A DNA stretch of 64,000 nucleotides from NCBI GenBank assembly GCA_965222615.1, contig CBDCUI010000007.1, positions 544,001 through 608,000 on the forward strand, in the 5' to 3' direction. The stretch is from Gammaproteobacteria bacterium (GTDB lineage: Bacteria; Pseudomonadota; Gammaproteobacteria; UBA4575). The position numbers were made by a program, and so were the translations under genes. A model generated the notes under the pieces. The model worked only from the letters and a program-made list of their open reading frames with translations. It had not been told where the DNA came from and did no database searches. Below are positions 20,024 to 62,138 of the stretch, piece after piece. Position 1 is the stretch's first letter. Every line of letters begins with the position of its first letter.

Positions 20024-21436
20024 TTACGATTGAAACAACCCCAACTCTTGAATCTTTCTGGTTAAGGTATTTCTGCCCCAACCTAAAAGTTTAGCGGCTT
20101 CTTGGCGTTTGCCTCCCGTCTTGCGCATGGCTGCTTTGATCATCACTGCTTCAAACAAAGGGGTTGCTCGATCCAGAATACCGTCCTCACCTTTAGACAA
20201 CTCATGTTCTGCCCATTCATTTAATAAACTTTGCCAATCCGATGTTTCTTCAGTAGACATCTCGTCTTTAAGCATTTCTGCTGGCAAGTCTTGCATGCGA
20301 ATTTCATTACTGGATGCCATTACTGTTAACCAACGGCATACATTTTCTAACTGGCGAACGTTGCCTGGCCATTCTAATGCACTTAGATACTCTACAACTT
20401 CTGCAGTGAGTTTTTTTGGCTCTGCCGCTAACTCCTGTGCAGAACTTTTCATAAAGTGTTTTAACAGAATAGGAATATCTTCTTTACGTTCACTCAAAGT
20501 AGGCAGGTGAATTCGAATTACGTTTAGACGATGAAATAAATCTTCACGAAATTTTCCACTTTTAACCCTTGCTTCCAAATTTTGATGTGTAGCCGCAATA
20601 ATGCGCACATCGGCCTTGATCGGCTCATGCCCACCCACACGATAAAAATGTCCATCCGACAACACACGTAGTAAACGTGTTTGTAAATCTGCAGGCATAT
20701 CTCCAATTTCATCTAAAAATAATGTGCCTTGATGGGCTTGTTCAAAGCGCCCCTTGCGCTGCGTCTGTGCTCCTGTAAATGCGCCTTTTTCATGCCCGAA
20801 CAATTCGGATTCTAATAAGTCACGAGGAATCGCCGCCATATTCAATGCAATAAATGGTCCTTGGGCACATGGGCTGTGTTCATGCAGTGCCTGTGCGACT
20901 AGTTCTTTTCCCGTTCCTGATGCACCATTGATAAGTACTGTGATATTTGAATTCGATAATCTGCCAATGGCACGAAACACTTCTTGCATGGCAGGCGATT
21001 CACCAATGATTTTTGGTAGCTCTTGAGTAAGTACATTGTCTGTTTCGGTACTTTTGGCTTCGCTCTCATCGGCAGCCAAGCAAGCCCGCTTGGTGAGTTC
21101 CACGGCTTCATCTACATCAAATGGTTTTGGCAAATATTCAAACGCACCTTTTTGATAAGCGCCGACTGCACTTTGTAAATCAGAGTGCGCAGTCATAATA
21201 ATAATGGGTAAGCTTGGGTAATCTGTTTTAATACGATCAAGAAATTCTAATCCATCGATACCCGGCATACGCACATCGGTAAGAATTGCCGATGGTGTTT
21301 GTTGTTCTAATTCACGTATCGCGATACTAGCGGATTCAAAAGTAGTAACCGGTATTTCTGCTTTTTGAAACGCGCGCTCTAAGACCCAGCGCATCGCTTG
21401 ATCATCATCTATTACCCAAACATTCGTACAATTCAT
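20024..21436 (-). CDS. ntrC: nitrogen regulation response regulator NtrC
   Basis: REC domain, GASGTGKE, GAFTGA, WPGNVRQLEN, HTH LGWGRNTLTRK. Confidence 0.97.
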   Translation of the reverse strand: MNCTNVWVIDDDQAMRWVLERAFQKAEIPVTTFESASIAIRELEQQTPSAILTDVRMPGIDGLEFLDRIKTDYPSLPIIIMTAHSDLQSAVGAYQKGAFEYLPKPFDVDEAVELTKRACLAADESEAKSTETDNVLTQELPKIIGESPAMQEVFRAIGRLSNSNITVLINGASGTGKELVAQALHEHSPCAQGPFIALNMAAIPRDLLESELFGHEKGAFTGAQTQRKGRFEQAHQGTLFLDEIGDMPADLQTRLLRVLSDGHFYRVGGHEPIKADVRIIAATHQNLEARVKSGKFREDLFHRLNVIRIHLPTLSERKEDIPILLKHFMKSSAQELAAEPKKLTAEVVEYLSALEWPGNVRQLENVCRWLTVMASSNEIRMQDLPAEMLKDEMSTEETSDWQSLLNEWAEHELSKGEDGILDRATPLFEAVMIKAAMRKTGGKRQEAAKLLGWGRNTLTRKIQELGLFQS

Positions 21437-21441
21437 AGCTT

Positions 21442-22572
21442 CTATACTTGTTTTTCTTTAGTAAAGTAATCTGCACCATTTAATGGTAACAACACTCTAA
21501 ATTCTGTATTCCCAGGAACAGAATCAAATTCGATTAAACCGCCATGCAGATTTATTAAATTTTGTGATATAGGTAGACCCAATCCTGTTCCATTTGCGTT
21601 TCCTGAAACCATTGGGAAAAATATTTGTGGTTGTAATTCTTCGGGAATTCCACAACCATTATCAATGACACTAATTTGTGCCACTAAACGATGACAAATA
21701 TCACCAACGGTGTATTTGCGTAAAACACGAGTTTTAATTGTAATCAGGGCATCAATGTCTACTGCACATACTGCGTTACGTACAATATTAAGGATGGCTT
21801 GCACAAGCAGATCACGGTCGGCTTTGATCAATGGAATACTAGGATCGTAATCGGTATTAAATTTAATTCGACTGGATGCCTCGGCAATGGCTAAATGACG
21901 AATATGCTCAAGTACATCGTGAATATTTATCTCTTGTTTTGCTGGTGTAATGTTTGGTCCGAGCATGCGATCAACAAGTTTTCGCAGGCGATCCGCTTCG
22001 CTAATGATTACGTCTGTGTATTCACGTAAATCTTGATCACTTAGCTCGCCCGATAATAATTGTGCTGCACCGCGTAACCCACCTAGTGGGTTTTTAATTT
22101 CATGCGCAAGTCCACGCAGCATGTTACGCGTGGCGTGACTTTCTAATAGCAGATGCTCTTCACGCGAAATACGTAACAAATGATCTACTTGAGTAATCTC
22201 CAATATACATTCTGATTTTTCTCCCTTGCTCAACATTGGCGTAATTGCACAATTAATAGTCATTTCATTTCCACCCAAGCGTTTAATGCACACTTCTCTT
22301 TGCGAGAAAGGGTGGCCGGTTCGTAATGATTTTTGAATGTGTGAAATAAAATTTCCGTCAACGTCTTGAATAAACTCAGTCAAAGGACGATTCAGAACAT
22401 GGCGAACACCCGTGCCCAAAAGCTCTTCGGCAGCCGGATTGACATAATTCAAGCGAAGTTCTTCATCGAGCAAAAAAATCGCCAAAGTTAAATTATCGAT
22501 AATCTTTTTATGTTCCATGGCATGCGCAACATTTGGAATCTCGCCAAATACATGTTTTAAAACGGTAGTCAT
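21442..22572 (-). CDS. ntrB: nitrogen regulation sensor kinase NtrB
   Basis: PAS domain, LAHEIKNPLGGLRGAAQLL, DYDPSIP, GTGLGL; start more likely 22518. Confidence 0.96.
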   Translation of the reverse strand: MTTVLKHVFGEIPNVAHAMEHKKIIDNLTLAIFLLDEELRLNYVNPAAEELLGTGVRHVLNRPLTEFIQDVDGNFISHIQKSLRTGHPFSQREVCIKRLGGNEMTINCAITPMLSKGEKSECILEITQVDHLLRISREEHLLLESHATRNMLRGLAHEIKNPLGGLRGAAQLLSGELSDQDLREYTDVIISEADRLRKLVDRMLGPNITPAKQEINIHDVLEHIRHLAIAEASSRIKFNTDYDPSIPLIKADRDLLVQAILNIVRNAVCAVDIDALITIKTRVLRKYTVGDICHRLVAQISVIDNGCGIPEELQPQIFFPMVSGNANGTGLGLPISQNLINLHGGLIEFDSVPGNTEFRVLLPLNGADYFTKEKQV

Positions 22573-22750: not shown

Positions 22751-23428
22751 TTAGGGCAAAGTAGGTGGCGGTGGAGGAGGTGGTCGTTGTGGGAGCTTAG
22801 TATTGGTCGGGATATTAAACGAGTTGCTGCCATCACCACTATTGCCTTCATTGTTATCACCGCCTTCACCTCCGTCGTTAGCTGAATTAACAGTATTCTG
22901 CAGACGTGAATAGCGGTGTAATGTGAAACTTACCGGCTCAGAGCTAATTAAAGTACGGCCATTGCGAGCCACGATCGTTGCCTTTACTACATGGGTGCCT
23001 CGATCAACATTTTTTACCGTTACACTACCTTCGGTACCTTTGTAGACTTGTTTACCTCCAAGTATCACAACATATTTGTGACCTCGGCGTGTGTTCAGTG
23101 CCGGGCTAGCTTGAAAGGTAATATTCACTACACCTGAGTTATCACGAATACTCGTATCATTTCCTGGCGCAGTGATGGTTAAAGCTTGATAACCATTATT
23201 CTCTTTTTGTGTAGAGGAGCTCGATGTTGAGCTTGGCGAAGTGGTAAGTGGCTTGGTTTCAATTAATGTAGGTAATTTATCGGTCTTCACCTCTTCAGGT
23301 TGTGCGCATTCAGTAGGATTGTCGGTATATATGGTGTTGCCATCCTTATCTTTGCAGGTATAGATACGTGCCTGAGCGATGTTTACACAGACAATAACGA
23401 CTAGTAGTAATAACAAACTTCCACGCAT
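22751..23428 (-). CDS. DUF4124-domain secreted protein
   Basis: Signal peptide, IYTCKDKDGNTIYTDNP, Ig-like RDNSG..NVDRGTH; usual position between glnA and ntrB. Confidence 0.85.
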   Translation of the reverse strand: MRGSLLLLLVVIVCVNIAQARIYTCKDKDGNTIYTDNPTECAQPEEVKTDKLPTLIETKPLTTSPSSTSSSSTQKENNGYQALTITAPGNDTSIRDNSGVVNITFQASPALNTRRGHKYVVILGGKQVYKGTEGSVTVKNVDRGTHVVKATIVARNGRTLISSEPVSFTLHRYSRLQNTVNSANDGGEGGDNNEGNSGDGSNSFNIPTNTKLPQRPPPPPPPTLP

Positions 23429-23579: not shown

Positions 23580-24989
23580 TTAGCAGCTGTAGTACATATC
23601 AAACTCAATCGGATGGGTAGACATGCGTAAGGCAGTGACTTCATCCATCTTTAAATCGATATAGCCATCAATGCAGTCATCTGAGAATACACCACCAGCT
23701 TTAAGAAAGTCGCGATCGTTATCCAGTGCTTCCAATGCTTGATCGAGTGAAGCACAAACCGTTGGAATTTTTGCTTCTTCTTCAGGCGGCAGATCATACA
23801 GATCTTTGTCAATTGCTGGGCCTGGATCAATCTGATTTTGAATCCCATCTAACCCCGCCATTAACATCGCAGCAAACGTCAGGTATGGATTGCCCGTAGG
23901 ATCACCAAAACGAACCTCGATCCTGCGTCCTTTTGGATTACTCTCATAGGGAATACGAATGGATGCCGAGCGATTGCGCGCAGAATATGCCAGCATTACC
24001 GGCGCTTCAAAACCTGGAACCAGTCGTTTGTAGCTATTGGTACTAGCATTAGAGAATGCATTGATTGCACGCGCATGTTTAATAATGCCGCCGATATAAA
24101 ACATGGCCGTTTGCGAAAGATTACCGTATAGGTCCCCTGCAAATAAATTATCACCATCTTTGACTAAAGACTGATGTACATGCATGCCACTGCCATTGTC
24201 ACCAACGATAGGTTTGGGCATAAACGTAGCGGTTTTACCATAGTTGTGCGCAACATTGAGTACGACATATTTTAAAATTTGGTTCCAGTCTGCACGCTTA
24301 GTCAGGGTGTTATAAAGAGTACCAATTTCGCATTGTCCGGCTGTGCCCACCTCGTGGTGATGTACCTCAACTGTCACACCCATTTCTTCTAATACCTGGC
24401 ACATGGCCGAACGCAAATCTTGTAATGAATCCACTGGAGGCACTGGAAAATAACCGCCTTTAACGCCTGGGCGATGTCCAATATTGCCTTCTTCAAATCC
24501 CTTGTTTGAATTCCAAGCCGATTCATCCGAGTCAATGGCATAGGAAGCACTGGACATTTCATTCAACCATTTGATGTCGTCAAACACGAAAAACTCAGGC
24601 TCAGGGCCAAAGTTAGCGGTGTCGGCAATGCCTGTTGAGCGCAAATAGGCCTCAGCCCGTTTTGCTACCGAACGAGGGTCACGACCGTAACCTTCCATAG
24701 TAGAAGGTTCAAGAATATCGCAGCGTAGAATGAGTGTGGGGTCACTGAAAAACGGATCTATTACCGCCGTGCTTGGATCCGGCATTAATATCATGTCGGA
24801 CTCATTAATTCCTTTCCAACCTGCAATAGAAGAGCCATCAAACATTTTGCCTTTTTCAAAAATATCCTCTTCGATGACTGTAGCAGGTACAGAGACATGT
24901 TGTTCTTTACCTCGTGTATCAGTAAATCGAAAATCAACGAATTTAACATCGTTGTCACTCATCATCTTCATTACATCGCTCGCGGACAT
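23580..24989 (-). CDS. glnA: glutamine synthetase type I
   Basis: [27 protein letters not shown], adenylylation site [10 protein letters not shown]. Confidence 0.99.
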
Positions 24990-25073
24990 TAGGTTTCTCC
25001 TTAGCTTTTCGACTCGAATGTTATTCTTATGGTCGTGGTTAATTGCTAACCACGTACTCTCGACATCCTCTAA

Positions 25074-25212
25074 AGCACATTACGTGCCAGTAACATTGGA
25101 TGCACTTTATTGAGGCCAGGGCGGCATTATACGCGGCTTGCAGGCGATAGAAAGATCAATAAAGTAGGTTATTTGCACCAGGATAGTGCTTTATAAGCAC
25201 CAGAACAGTGCT
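25074..25212 (-). promoter_or_regulatory. glnA sigma54 promoter with two NtrC boxes
   Basis: Minus TGGCACGTAATGTGCT (25089-25074); TGCACCAGGATAGTGCT (25174-25190); AGCACCAGAACAGTGCT (25196-25212). Confidence 0.85.
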
Positions 25213-25566
25213 TGTTGTTTGGAATTATTCTGCAGCTCTATAACACAAACGCCAAACTTACACGTTGAGCTTTAGTGAACAATGGAACCCTTGTTCATGG
25301 ATTTTTCCTACACCTCGACTTAGTCAAACATCGAGGACATAAACGCAAATCAATACAAGACTGGAGCATTAACTGCTGAAGAAATTGAACTTAAAAAAGT
25401 AGATATACATCACATCGGCAATGCCGAAATTTGTCACCAAAGGCCAAATTCTGGGGACAAAATTGGTCCAATTTGCGACTAAGGGTGTTTGTTAGCAAAT
25501 GCTAATACACACTTAACCTACCCTATGTCAGTAAGTTAATTACACTACTTCAAGTCGCCAAAAAGC

Positions 25567-25582
25567 TGGCATAGCCCTTGCT
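25567..25582 (+). promoter_or_regulatory. sigma54 -24/-12 promoter
   Basis: TGGCATAGCCCTTGCT (GG-N10-GC), immediately before the GGA-rich tract. Confidence 0.75.
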
Positions 25583-25592
25583 CAAATAGCTA

Positions 25593-26030
25593 GTAATAGG
25601 GACGTTTTTATTTGCCAGGGATTGGCGAAACTATTTTAGACAAGGAGGTCAACATGGTCGGCAACACGGACGTACTCACAACATTATATGTTGTATGGAT
25701 CGCCGCTAGTGTAGCAGCGCTGGCTTGGGCCTATCGCGACACAGTGAAACAAAAACTTTGTGGCGTAAAAAAAGGCGCTTAAACACTAACAAGGATTCAT
25801 GGTGATAAGTGTTGAGCTTATCACGATGTGTAAGGATACGGACTTGTATGCAAGTGATACGGATATCTACTTTGCAAATCAAGTCACCATATTTAAGGAA
25901 TTTGCTAATGGTATGGATACCATGGCAAGCAAGGAAGCAACTGAATAGCTCATGCATCAGGAGAGCTTTTTACTTTAAGTCTTAGGGATGAGAGCTGCGT
26001 GACAGGGACGTCAACTCGCAGCTTCTTCAT
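25593..26030 (+). ncRNA. CsrB/Rsm-like CsrA-sequestering RNA
   Basis: About 15 GGA motifs, mostly ANGGA and many in short stem-loops (GCCAGGGATTGGC, GACAAGGAGGTC, GATACGGATATC, ATGGTATGGATACCAT, TGACAGGGACGTCA); 3' end uncertain. Confidence 0.75.
25654..25782 (+). CDS. 42-aa single-TM small protein inside the CsrB-like RNA
   Basis: RBS AAGGAGGT (25642-25649); MVGNTDVLTTLYVVWIAASVAALAWAYRDTVKQKLCGVKKGA; hydrophobic span followed by a basic tail. Confidence 0.6.
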   Translation: MVGNTDVLTTLYVVWIAASVAALAWAYRDTVKQKLCGVKKGA

Positions 26031-26114
26031 TCAAACTTCAATATATTCATTCATATGCTGGTCGCAGGACGGACGCATCGCTATACTCACGCTGCGTCAT
26101 TTGCCAGCAAAGAC

Positions 26115-27026
26115 ATGCCAAAGCCTCGATCAACACAAACTCAGATATCTTTTCAAGATCTAGTGCATAAACTTGAACAGTTTTGGGCTGCTCAGGGCTG
26201 TGTAATTGAACAACCGTATGACTTGGAAATGGGTGCAGCAACGTTTCATCCCGCCACATTTTTACGGGCTCTTGGACCAGAGCCTTGGCATGCTGCTTAT
26301 CCACAACCTTGTCGTCGCCCGACCGATGGACGTTATGGAGACAATCCAAATCGCTTGCAGCGTTACTTTCAGTTTCAGGTAATTTTAAAACCCTCACCAG
26401 ATAATATTCAGGATCTCTACTTAGAATCACTAATCAAATTGAATATTGATCCTCTGGTTCACGATATCCGTTTTGTCGAGGATAACTGGGAATCTCCAAC
26501 CTTAGGAGCATGGGGACTAGGCTGGGAAGTTTGGTTGGACGGCATGGAAATCTCTCAATTTACTTACTTTCAACAAGTGGGGGGATTAGATTGTAATCCA
26601 GTCAGTGGAGAAATTACCTATGGACTAGAACGTATCGCCATGTATTTACAAAACAAGGACAGCGTTTACGATTTAATTTGGACACAGCGGCAAGGTAAAG
26701 ACATAAGCTACGGAGAAATTTATCAACAAAATGAAAAAGAACAATCCGCCTATAATTTTGAACATGCCGATACAGAATTTTTATTCGCATCTTTTGATGC
26801 TCACGAAAAAGAATGCAATCAGCTTGTTGAGCTAGAACTTCCTATTGCAGCTTATGACCATGTATTAAAATGTTCACATGCATTCAATTTATTAGATGCG
26901 CGACAGGTGATTTCCGTAACGGAACGACAACAATATATTTTACGAATCCGTCGTTTAGCACAAGCCGTTGCAACAGGTTATTTCGAAAGCCGTGAAAACA
27001 TAAGCTTTCCTTTACTCAACAAATAA
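26115..27026 (+). CDS. glyQ: glycyl-tRNA synthetase alpha subunit
   Basis: [31 protein letters not shown]; start taken at ATG 26115 (ORF track starts at 26055). Confidence 0.97.
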
Positions 27027-62045: not shown

Positions 62046-62138
62046 CTATCTGGCAATCCCGCTGTCTTAGAATCCTTGCTTCCGTAGACCGGTAATTTTG
62101 CGCCCCTATCTTTCAATAGGTTTGCCTTTTTTCAGTAG
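62046..62138 (-). ncRNA. c-di-GMP-I (GEMM) riboswitch
   Basis: GGCAAACCTATT-GAAA-GATAGGGGCGCAAAATTACCGGTCTAC..GACAGCGGGATTGCCAG; P2 GNRA loop, P3 receptor region, G20 present. Confidence 0.88.

Follow-up and report, generated by a model that had tools for sequence, protein, structure and literature searches.

Genetic organization of the glnA–glyQ interval

The window (the whole 64,000-nucleotide stretch of DNA that was analyzed) contains, between glnA and glyQ, a candidate transcription unit on the plus strand. Its divergent neighbor, glnA (23580–24989, minus strand), is an open reading frame whose placement was recovered by tblastn in all of the related loci; this putative identity, adopted from an earlier sequence-only annotation (the “first-pass annotation”), rests on the gene’s conserved placement beside ntrB and ntrC. 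The latter gene (20024–21436, minus strand) is the last in a divergent glnA–DUF4124–ntrB–ntrC row. Its product, the nitrogen regulator NR(I), matched NCBIfam TIGR01818 with 730.7 bits (cut-off 558.6) and also matched PF00158.

A sigma-54 promoter is found at 25567–25582 (plus strand; TGGCAT-N5-TTGCT, in full TGGCATAGCCCTTGCT), with its −24 GG and −12 GC elements at canonical spacing. The first-pass annotation had called a good −24/−12 promoter ahead of a run of GGA motifs; it is indeed present, and it is kept in all 30 related loci that were examined (18/18, 6/6, and 6/6 in the three sets). From the usual promoter-to-start distance of sigma-54 promoters, we predict that the RNA begins near 25593. 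All downstream features lie on the plus strand. A leader hairpin with a GGA in its loop (25611–25629) is supported by folding and by a compensating stem change. It is followed by a Shine-Dalgarno sequence (AAGGAGG, 25643–25649) and an ORF of 42 codons for a single-pass membrane protein (25654–25782, stop included; 25643–25782 as a whole), and then by a GGA-hairpin domain (25783–26030), which is putatively the CsrA-binding part.

The DNA upstream of this promoter has several conserved features. At −145 to −94 lies a 52-nt element (25422–25473, plus strand) that contains TTTGTCAC and GACAAA-N-GGTC half-sites and is conserved in 18 of 18 relatives. The inverted motifs previously remarked at 25424–25466 are real and fall inside this block. 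When the other 17 loci were used to build a weight matrix, it scored 69.8 at the element and 5.5 at the next best site in the genome; the element bears no likeness to an NtrC box. Between it and the promoter is a site, TCAGTAAGTTA (25528–25538, plus strand), that is conserved in related loci and is putatively IHF-like, by resemblance to the IHF consensus. Farther upstream are two boxes of the form GCACCA-N5-AGTGC (25174–25211), identified from the sequence and from aligned spacers and, by their resemblance to the NtrC consensus, of the NtrC type. They lie about 120–145 bp upstream of a glnAp2-like sigma-54 promoter of glnA (25074–25089, minus strand; TGGCAC-N5-GTGCT, in a block that is conserved across all eight aligned spacers) and 370–392 bp upstream of the RNA promoter. 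In 26 of the 30 loci, boxes of the form GCAC-N7-9-GTGC precede the RNA promoter at a distance of 271–494 bp.

On the other side of the unit, glyQ likely starts at the ATG at 26115 rather than at the listed one farther upstream (26055); tblastn matches of the relatives begin at residues 17–32. A probable glyQ −10 element (TATACT, 26082–26087) precedes it, and this stretch (26082–26117, plus strand) is a conserved block within the G000 clade. The first-pass annotation had remarked on the lack of a clear U-tract, and we likewise found no terminator-like site 3′ of the RNA in this genome. A clear terminator is absent from its clade and present in 13 of 18 relatives.

GGA motifs are confined to one strand

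The 464-nt segment from 25567 to 26030 contains 15 GGA motifs on the plus strand and none on the minus strand. Fourteen of the 15 have the form A-N-GGA, which agrees with the earlier count of about 15 one-strand motifs that were mostly ANGGA. Five of them are located in the 5′ leader and the ORF, and ten in the 3′ domain. After mononucleotide shuffling of the 443-nt transcript (500 replicates), GGA occurred 8.4 times on average (maximum 16) and A-N-GGA 2.4 times (maximum 7). When A-N-GGA was counted per 464 nt over the whole 3.1-Mb genome (mean 1.26, standard deviation 1.23), the glnA/glyQ RNA ranked first with its 14 motifs. Plain GGA density is unexceptional here: coding windows of the genome contain up to 19. 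The strand bias recurs in all 30 related RNAs, which have 6–17 GGA vs. 0–2 TCC.

The 3′ domain folds into GGA-presenting hairpins

The hairpin domain at 25783–26030 folds beyond chance, in accord with the structure that the first-pass annotation had supposed: its fold z-score is −4.04, and none of 200 shuffled sequences was as stable. Fold z-scores of the GGA-hairpin RNAs were −4.0, −3.7, and −3.6, and our search model R1 scored 118.5 bits at 25783–26030. The unpaired probability of GGA in this domain is 0.54 vs. 0.36 for all bases; across the RNAs, the corresponding values are 0.54–0.79 and 0.36–0.42. The earlier statement that the motifs lie mostly in hairpin loops was nonetheless too strong for this genome. 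In the minimum-energy fold, four of the ten 3′ GGA motifs are wholly in hairpin loops, two are partly unpaired, and four are paired. Among the 18 relatives, 3–7 GGA per RNA are in hairpin loops, and each 3′ domain has 7–13 GGA.

Three hairpins of the domain (all plus strand) deserve description. The first, ATGGTA-TGGA-TACCAT (helix H4, 25908–25923), presents GGA in its loop and shows compensatory changes in three of six pairs over 18 sequences. The second, AGCTC...GAGCT (25947–25967; helix 4, with 84% of cells paired and no double changes), carries CAGGA in its loop and is followed by T5. The third is a two-tier hairpin at the 3′ terminus (25993–26024), with an outer stem of GCTGCG/CGCAGC and an inner stem of 3 bp; it is the most conserved part of the RNA, and the pair formed by alignment columns 150 and 182 switches from A-U to G-C. 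Its inner loop presents ACAGGGACGU, one mismatch from the CsrA SELEX core ACARGGAUGU. Loops of the ACARGGAYGU type are found in 16 of the 18 ORF-bearing RNAs, and the exact ACARGGAUGU in 7 of the 18. The consensus obtained for CsrA by SELEX is ACARGGAUGU, with the GGA in the loop of a short hairpin (PMC7652899).

When all 18 sequences were folded as one mixed alignment, few helices of the whole domain emerged in the consensus, so we folded each of the two clades separately and tested a structure drawn by hand. In that structure, 89.9% of cells pair, vs. 25–55% when the partners are slid. Compensatory changes were seen in six pairs (15 cells), and the covariation score was not reached by any of 500 shuffles. 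Many helices never vary, and the close kinship of the sequences (effective number 2.1) keeps the covariation modest. In the 5′ leader, the hairpin stem shows a compensating change between clades (GCC/GGC vs. GCTC/GAGC, compared by eye).

Distribution among related genomes

The family is represented by 56 genomes, and in 32 of them the unit was found between divergent glnA and glyQ: 26 by model R1, for which six weak matches were inspected, and six more of 18 that were searched again with laxer filters. The genes csrA and rpoN are each present in 52 of the 56. Because csrA also occurs in genera in which the RNA was not found, the RNA is not the family’s universal CsrA antagonist. In five genera, the RNA carries the conserved ORF. 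Two others, g8 and g11, have kept the promoter and the GGA RNA, and no conserved ORF was found in their versions; it follows that the GGA-hairpin RNA is the common core.

NtrC is the favored candidate activator

The first-pass annotation had named two possible activators, NtrC or another enhancer-binding protein acting at the inverted motifs. This genome encodes rpoN and six PF00158 proteins, one of which is NtrX-like and is without the GAFTGA loop. Two RNA-bearing genomes were informative: a single PF00158 protein (E ≤ 1e-20) is present in G015 (100% complete) and likewise in G058 (83% complete), both being draft genomes, of 50 and 130 contigs. The sole such protein of G015 is NtrC (727 bits), and that of G058 is encoded on the contig that carries the RNA, about 4.4 kb away from it. 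With NtrC as the only sigma-54 activator found in two genomes that have the RNA, NtrC is preferred over PilR, and transcription of the RNA most likely requires NtrC~P. These genomes lend the NtrC option indirect support. NtrC acting alone would leave the 52-nt element, which is unlike an NtrC box, without an explanation; a further factor is probably bound to this dedicated upstream element. The sequence TTTGTCAC-N18-GACAAA occurs just twice in the genome, once in the RNA’s element and once about 170 bp ahead of a sigma-54 promoter that belongs to a pilin-like gene, which hints that this genome uses another activator.

We therefore weighed a version in which the unit is as described but its activator in this genome is PilR, or another of the five sigma-54 activators, working on 25422–25473. 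The element does occupy the usual position of an enhancer and is unique in the genome, TGACA-N5-TGTCA(C) was present in the pilR–pilA spacer of all five genomes that we looked at, and PilR orthologues and the RNA mostly co-occur at the level of genera. This co-occurrence, however, is confounded by kinship and genome reduction. Moreover, a search at E ≤ 1e-110 recovered no orthologue of PilR in five genomes that carry the RNA (G057, G058, G044, and two that are 100% complete, G015 and G054), and g8 genomes that lack PilR still keep the element’s first half. The pilR gene of G006 is truncated at residue 233, where it joins a pilC-like frame, but this genome still has the promoter, the upstream element, the ORF, and the RNA. 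The genomes without PilR and the truncated gene of G006 weaken the PilR lead, and we regard this version as unlikely.

The 5′ part encodes a conserved small membrane protein

The first-pass annotation had the sponge begin at the transcript start; it overlooked the ORF at 25654–25782. That extent for the sponge does not hold, as the first ~190 nt are message for a conserved membrane protein of 42 aa. All 18 loci, those of this genome and of 17 relatives, have kept the ORF uninterrupted, with lengths of 39–43 aa. Its pN/pS is 0.225, and pN was lower than pS in all 153 pairs, a pattern of purifying selection. Of 36 codons, 31 varied at the third position and 11 at the second, and the other two frames of the region carry stops in 18 and 16 of the 18 sequences. 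The ORF thereby has the conserved coding signature that marks a dual-function RNA, the evidence being evolutionary. Csr/Rsm sponges are non-coding; the RNA of this genome departs from them in this respect, since its ORF is under purifying selection.

Searches of Pfam and NCBIfam found no family for the 42-aa protein; the sole NCBIfam match, to an FtsL domain, was below threshold (12.5 bits vs. a cut-off of 50) and was rejected. An Atlas search with the protein gave scores that were all under 0.9 and no family. Nine close relatives were present in a collection of 5.8 billion proteins. This is an unannotated, conserved small membrane protein in its own right.

The existence of such an ORF raises a different reading of the locus: a plain mRNA for a small membrane protein, whose GGA-rich 3′ UTR stabilizes the message or allows CsrA to control this one gene, with no global titration. 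The clear purifying selection and the strong ribosome-binding site speak for it, as does the GGA-loop hairpin about 20 nt before a GGA-containing Shine-Dalgarno sequence, which is the classic layout of a CsrA-repressed leader. It accounts poorly for g8 and g11, where the promoter and the GGA-hairpin RNA persist with no conserved ORF; in those genera, the RNA part stands alone. In addition, the 3′ terminal hairpins are more conserved than the ORF, and the number of GGA per 3′ domain is far beyond the needs of single-gene control. We consider a plain mRNA to be quite improbable.

Relation to Csr and other regulatory RNAs

A target for a Csr-type sponge is available. The genome has a single csrA gene (PF02599, 92 bits, C8:997499), so the presence of csrA that the first-pass annotation had posed as a check is confirmed. 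Rfam gave no match in the whole window at gathering scores and nothing relevant in 24900–26200 at E ≤ 10, and the CsrB and PrrB_RsmZ models did not match anywhere in the genome. The description of the RNA as CsrB-like must therefore be qualified: many A(N)GGA motifs, several of them in loops, agree with it, whereas the Rfam Csr/Rsm models do not. We thus speak of an RNA that works like CsrB, not of a member of the CsrB family.

The usual control also appears to be missing. The UvrY/GacA box has the form TGTAAG-N6-CTTACA. No full box was found in the genome, and no near-box precedes a GGA-rich non-coding stretch. No sigma70-like promoter site was found in 24900–26200, either. These two results support the earlier proposal that sigma-54 stands in place of the usual sigma70/GacA control. 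A search for a UvrY orthologue came up empty: the best UvrY-like regulator scored 177.8 against a cut-off of 280 and is encoded beside a NarX-type kinase.

The known sponges CsrB and CsrC of E. coli and RsmX/Y/Z of Pseudomonas and Legionella share with this RNA the one-strand A(N)GGA motifs, several of them in the loops of short hairpins, and a csrA gene in the genome. CsrC is close to it in length and in number of GGA. The RNA differs from this group in having a sigma-54 promoter where theirs is sigma70 with a UvrY/GacA box, in carrying a conserved ORF in five genera, and in lacking an Rfam match. BarA–UvrY orthologues drive the Csr/Rsm sRNAs of many Gammaproteobacteria, as described in PMC7652899. 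Lineage-specific Csr sRNAs have a parallel in Pf1, Pf2, and Pf3 of Pseudoalteromonas fuliginea, which, according to PMC11882849, were recognized via GGA motifs, promoter, and terminator and confirmed by CsrA gel shift and a glycogen assay in E. coli. Their upstream region has the sequence that the CsrB family conserves (PMC11882849); our RNA has a −24/−12 promoter and no such box.

Translated messages can also titrate CsrA, as described for flaA of Campylobacter jejuni (PMC4894983) and the fimA leader of Salmonella (PMC13501541). Like them, the present RNA would be a translated message whose GGA sites compete for CsrA. In these descriptions, however, the GGA sites precede a large structural gene, in its 5′ leader, while here a 250-nt hairpin array follows an ORF of 42 codons. 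The A-rich motifs through which CrcZ and CrcY of Pseudomonas titrate Hfq/Crc have the form AANAANAA; our RNA has a single one in 443 nt vs. 15 GGA, and so it is not CrcZ-like. CrcZ and CrcY are sponge RNAs from sigma-N promoters, directly activated by the NtrC-family protein CbrB, and the gene adjoins the operon of its regulator (PMC8871633). The sigma-54 promoter is held in common with them, and so would be the protein-sponge type and the NtrC-family activator that are proposed here. NrsZ of Pseudomonas aeruginosa is induced under nitrogen limitation by NtrB/C (PMC4253122); it is described there as a processed sRNA and not as a CsrA sponge, and no Rfam family matched the stretch of our RNA. 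A role to which the GGA motifs are incidental, in which the partner of the hairpin domain is not CsrA but another protein, or in which the domain works through base-pairing, would fit the missing Rfam Csr/Rsm match and the sigma-54-driven RNAs described so far, which titrate Hfq/Crc (CrcZ; PMC8871633) or act otherwise (PMC4253122), but it is very improbable in light of the lone AANAANAA motif, the invariant alignment columns (which are GGA triplets, mostly in loops), the resemblance of the loops to the CsrA SELEX ligand, and the 15:0 strand bias, which is the selection expected from a GGA-reading protein.

A model for the glnA–glyQ RNA

The RNA is probably a CsrA sponge under sigma-54/NtrC control that, in this genome, has a dual function; this assessment derives from sequence comparison. 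As a whole, a two-part sigma-54/NtrC RNA, composed of a small mRNA and a CsrA-titrating chain of hairpins, is the explanation that we favor, with moderate confidence. The promoter at 25567–25582 would drive an RNA of about 440 nt. Its 5′ third would serve as the small mRNA, with the GGA-loop hairpin, the strong ribosome-binding site, and the 42-codon ORF for the single-pass membrane protein. The 3′ 250 nt would form a chain of short hairpins with A(N)GGA in their loops, ending in the two-tier hairpin that is close to the CsrA ligand. Most likely, several CsrA dimers bind to this chain, which would titrate the single CsrA in the manner of CsrB/CsrC/RsmY/RsmZ. NtrC~P would act from the two boxes that it has in common with the divergent glnA promoter, aided by bending at the IHF-like site, with another factor probably bound to the 52-nt element. 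Nitrogen limitation would then lower CsrA activity.

If this model is correct, nitrogen starvation directly reprograms the carbon-storage and lifestyle regulator CsrA, and the link between nitrogen status and CsrA is direct and testable. It would also mean that a sponge RNA can acquire new wiring and be joined to a small-protein gene. A sponge under sigma-54/NtrC would follow a different input logic from the BarA–UvrY/GacS–GacA systems of the Gammaproteobacteria studied so far (as described in PMC7652899). Our literature search, which covered openly accessible papers, found no CsrA sponge driven by sigma-54 or NtrC. Only tentatively do we suggest a first case of a Csr-type sponge that belongs to the nitrogen regulon, one that shares the glnA enhancer, has captured an ORF in five genera, and takes the place of the BarA/UvrY (GacS/GacA) input in this family.

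Other sites in the genome were also considered as Csr-like RNAs. The runner-up window for A-N-GGA (C8:823711, with 12) was excluded, as it sits within a coding region. The RsmY model gave 28.6 bits (cut-off 57) at a place other than our RNA, at the 3′ end of a gene; this match (C8:469383) was rejected, being the end of that gene and its terminator. A non-coding stretch without an Rfam match, near position 80311 of contig C9 (minus strand), has nine GGA in 130 nt.

Conservation and setting of the sigma-54 unit

The unit at 25567–26030 (+) in the glnA/glyQ spacer, composed of a sigma-54 promoter, a 42-codon ORF and a GGA-hairpin RNA, is real and conserved. A DNA search of 41 relatives located the stretch in eight genomes of five genera, each time between glnA and glyQ. 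When 185,579 species genomes were scanned for exact patterns, 20 loci emerged; 16 were true homologues, all in uncultured Gammaproteobacteria/Thiotrichales assemblies, and the other four were chance matches. Combined, these searches yielded 18 distinct sequences. A covariance model (R1) of the 3′ 143 positions of the RNA matched 26 of the 56 family genomes, 20 at 91–150 bits and six, from genus g8, at 24–36 bits; on inspection, the six weak loci shared the synteny, the promoter and a GGA-rich RNA. With laxer filters, a renewed search of 18 R1-negative genomes brought in six more loci that passed verification, of which g8 supplied five and g11 one; four further matches were judged spurious and removed. 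In total, the unit is present in 32/56 family genomes and 7/11 genera; model R1 did not find it in g3, g4, g5 or g10. One of the 16 homologues, a complete copy of the glnA-RNA locus typical of this family of Gammaproteobacteria, lies on a contig (L023, CAXMUG010000050.1) that is labelled “uncultured Mycobacterium sp.” and is presumably mis-binned.

The −24/−12 promoter proposed in the first-pass annotation (TGGCAT-N5-TTGCT, 25567–25582, +) was borne out, being kept in all 30 loci examined; no sigma70-like promoter was detected in 24900–26200. The divergent neighbor, glnA (23580–24989, −), has its own sigma-54 promoter in the spacer (25074–25089, −), and two NtrC-type boxes (25174–25211) lie ~120–145 bp upstream of it, the classical glnAp2 layout. 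Behind glnA in the nitrogen operon come a gene for a 225-aa DUF4124 protein (22751–23428, −), a 376-aa ORF (21442–22572, −) taken to be ntrB from its position alone, and ntrC (TIGR01818, 730.7 bits). Downstream of the RNA, glyQ (+) is annotated from an ATG at 26055. Because the relatives’ matches start at residues 17–32 of that frame and a conserved TATACT (26082) stands upstream of an ATG at 26115, the latter is probably the true start. Elsewhere in the window, a c-di-GMP-I riboswitch (62049–62136, −) scored 76.8 bits, well over the gathering threshold of 35.

GGA content and structure of the RNA

The GGA enrichment reported earlier (about 15 motifs on one strand, mostly ANGGA) was reproduced: 25567–26030 holds 15 GGA on the + strand vs. 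none on the − strand, and 14 of the 15 have the form A-N-GGA. Shuffled versions of the 443-nt transcript contained on average 8.4 GGA and 2.4 A-N-GGA, with a maximum of seven A-N-GGA in 500 shuffles. Among 464-nt windows on both strands of the 3.1-Mb genome, this one ranks first for A-N-GGA (14 vs. a mean of 1.26), and the second-ranked window is coding sequence; the plain GGA count by itself is unexceptional genome-wide.

The 3′ 253 nt fold with a z-score of −4.04, and none of 200 shuffles was as stable; the values for the whole transcript and for a distant relative were −3.70 and −3.60. Across 18 RNAs, the unpaired probability of GGA was 0.54–0.79, vs. 0.36–0.42 for all bases, and the hairpin loops of the minimum-energy folds held 3–7 GGA per RNA. 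The earlier claim that the motifs lie mostly in hairpin loops therefore stands only in part: they are more unpaired than average, but 4/10 occupy hairpin loops in the minimum-energy fold of the genome under study. Covariation was tested on a hand-drawn four-hairpin structure, in which 89.9% of cells were paired (25–55% with the partners slid). Double changes affected six pairs and 15 cells, and the covariation score was reached by 0/500 shuffles. This backing for the structure is modest, given how closely related the sequences are (effective number 2.1). The invariant alignment columns are mainly GGA triplets and a terminal two-tier hairpin; in its loop this genome has ACAGGGACGU, and seven relatives have ACAAGGAUGU. 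SELEX for CsrA ligands gave the consensus RUACARGGAUGU, whose GGA is presented in a short hairpin’s loop (PMC7652899). The RNA very probably carries CsrA-binding hairpins.

A clean GC-rich hairpin with a T-run ends the RNA in 13/18 relatives. It is absent from the clade of five that includes the present genome, where no terminator-like site 3′ of the RNA was found in 24900–26200; partial read-through towards glyQS is thus possible, as the first-pass annotation had suggested on noting no clear U-tract.

A conserved small ORF precedes the hairpin domain

The same annotation had the sponge begin right after the promoter and did not notice an ORF there. Seven bases after a Shine-Dalgarno sequence (AAGGAGG, 25643, +) comes the ATG (25654, +) of a 42-codon frame that is intact in 18/18 sequences (39–43 aa). 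Among these, third positions vary in 31/36 codons and second positions in 11/36, mean pN/pS is 0.225 with pN<pS in 153/153 pairs, and the alternative frames contain stops in 18/18 and 16/18 sequences. Given this coding signature, the first ~190 nt of the proposed sponge read as a small mRNA. The predicted product has a single hydrophobic span and a basic tail. It matched no Pfam family; in NCBIfam its sole match was a sub-threshold FtsL-domain hit (12.5 bits), an Atlas search gave no lead, and a 5.8-billion-protein collection held just nine close relatives, all unnamed. In g8 and g11 the GGA-hairpin RNA directly follows the promoter and short frames vary between genomes; as these versions lack the conserved ORF, the hairpin domain is the shared core. 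In the genome under study, the RNA is probably dual-function, joining the small ORF to a putative sponge domain. The ORF leader, with a GGA-loop hairpin and a GGA within the Shine-Dalgarno sequence, looks CsrA-repressible.

Relation to known sponge RNAs

The RNA matched no Rfam family, and the CsrB and RsmZ models found nothing anywhere in the genome. A weak RsmY-model match elsewhere proved to be a gene end with its terminator. No GacA box precedes any GGA-rich non-coding stretch in the genome, and the best UvrY-like regulator falls below the cut-off and is partnered by a NarX-type kinase. Judged by these searches, the RNA is not a Csr RNA by descent; CsrB/CsrC/Rsm RNAs serve as its functional model. 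The presence of csrA, which had been left for confirmation, was established (one gene; 52/56 family genomes have it). With a single copy of the A-rich AANAANAA motif, the RNA is not CrcZ-like. CrcZ/CrcY are a precedent for a protein sponge driven by sigma-N with an NtrC-family activator (PMC8871633). Other parallels are NrsZ, an NtrBC-induced sRNA (PMC4253122), and two coding RNAs that titrate CsrA, flaA mRNA (PMC4894983) and the fimA leader (PMC13501541); Pf1-3 provide a validation route for lineage-specific Csr RNAs (PMC11882849). No CsrA sponge driven by sigma-54 or NtrC appeared among the titles and abstracts listed from an open-access library.

Candidate activators

The genome encodes rpoN and five true enhancer-binding proteins: NtrC, a FleQ-like and FleR-like pair, PilR (with PilS and pilA adjacent) and a regulator beside a hydrogenase operon. 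From −145 to −94 of the RNA promoter runs a 52-nt block that is kept in 18/18 loci and unique in the genome; it is followed, ahead of the promoter, by an IHF-like site. The block includes the motifs at 25424–25466 for which an activator other than NtrC had been suggested, and we first favored PilR: the only two places in the genome with TTTGTCAC-N18-GACAAA are this block and the region upstream of a pilin-like gene that has a sigma-54 promoter, and TGACA-N5-TGTCA(C) is found in the pilR-pilA spacer of 5/5 genomes. However, one relative (G006) keeps the whole RNA unit even though its pilR breaks off at residue 233 and runs on into a pilC-like frame, and five others (G054, G015, G057, G058 and G044) have the RNA but lack a PilR orthologue at E≤1e-110. 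These comparisons argue against a requirement for PilR.

A census of activators, which carries the most weight here, favors NtrC. G015 (100% complete) and G058 (83% complete), which both have rpoN, each encode one protein with the activator domain PF00158 (E≤1e-20); that of G015 is NtrC (727 bits), and that of G058 is encoded on the same contig as the RNA. A sigma-54 promoter needs an enhancer-binding protein to fire, so NtrC is the sole candidate in these two genomes. NtrC-type boxes, common to the RNA promoter and the divergent glnA promoter, lie 271–494 bp upstream of the former in 26/30 loci. Both lines favor the NtrC option of the first-pass annotation, and the unit is probably under NtrC control.

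Beyond the existence and conservation of these sequence features, we infer the following steps. Under nitrogen limitation, NtrC~P would assemble at the boxes shared with glnA and activate both glnA and the RNA promoter, reaching the latter through DNA looping over the IHF-like bend. The hairpin array would then bind CsrA dimers, lowering free CsrA, and in five genera the RNA would additionally be translated into the 42-aa membrane protein.

Additional observations

The pilin-like gene (contig C8, start ~976716) has the sigma-54 promoter TTGGCATATCTTCTGCA (region C8:976384–976580); ~170 bp upstream of it, TGACA-N5-TGTCAC and GACAAA-N5-TGTA stand 33 bp apart, the layout of the 25422–25473 element. 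The fused frame of G006 (L049, G006:C1:900319–904014, frame 397–2199, −) encodes 600 aa, PilR to residue ~233 and then in-frame PilC/GspF-like sequence; it reflects either deletion of the output half of pilR plus pilA or an assembly join. At C9:112246–116800, an enhancer-binding protein whose receiver domain is degenerate is encoded just upstream of the sigma-54 promoter TTGGCACATAACTTGCT, whose genes, read by eye, specify [NiFe] hydrogenase small and large subunits.

The genome maximum for plain GGA (19) falls in the 464 nt ahead of csrA (C8:997100–997500), mostly in the csrA leader and the end of the upstream gene, aspartate kinase-like as read by eye. Nine GGA fall within 130 nt of a non-coding stretch (L067, C9:~80300–80450, −) that adjoins a gene for an RRM-type RNA-binding protein; the stretch had no Rfam match at E≤1 and could be a second GGA-rich RNA. 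The pilA promoter, TGGCAY-N5-CTGTA, has an odd −12 element. The pilA leader (C8:388700–389010, −, and loci L045–L048), kept in 5/5 genomes, shows AGCAAGGAGTGCT in a hairpin loop and has GGA motifs that overlap its Shine-Dalgarno sequence (GAGGATAGGAGA ahead of the ATG); it looks like a CsrA-repressed leader.
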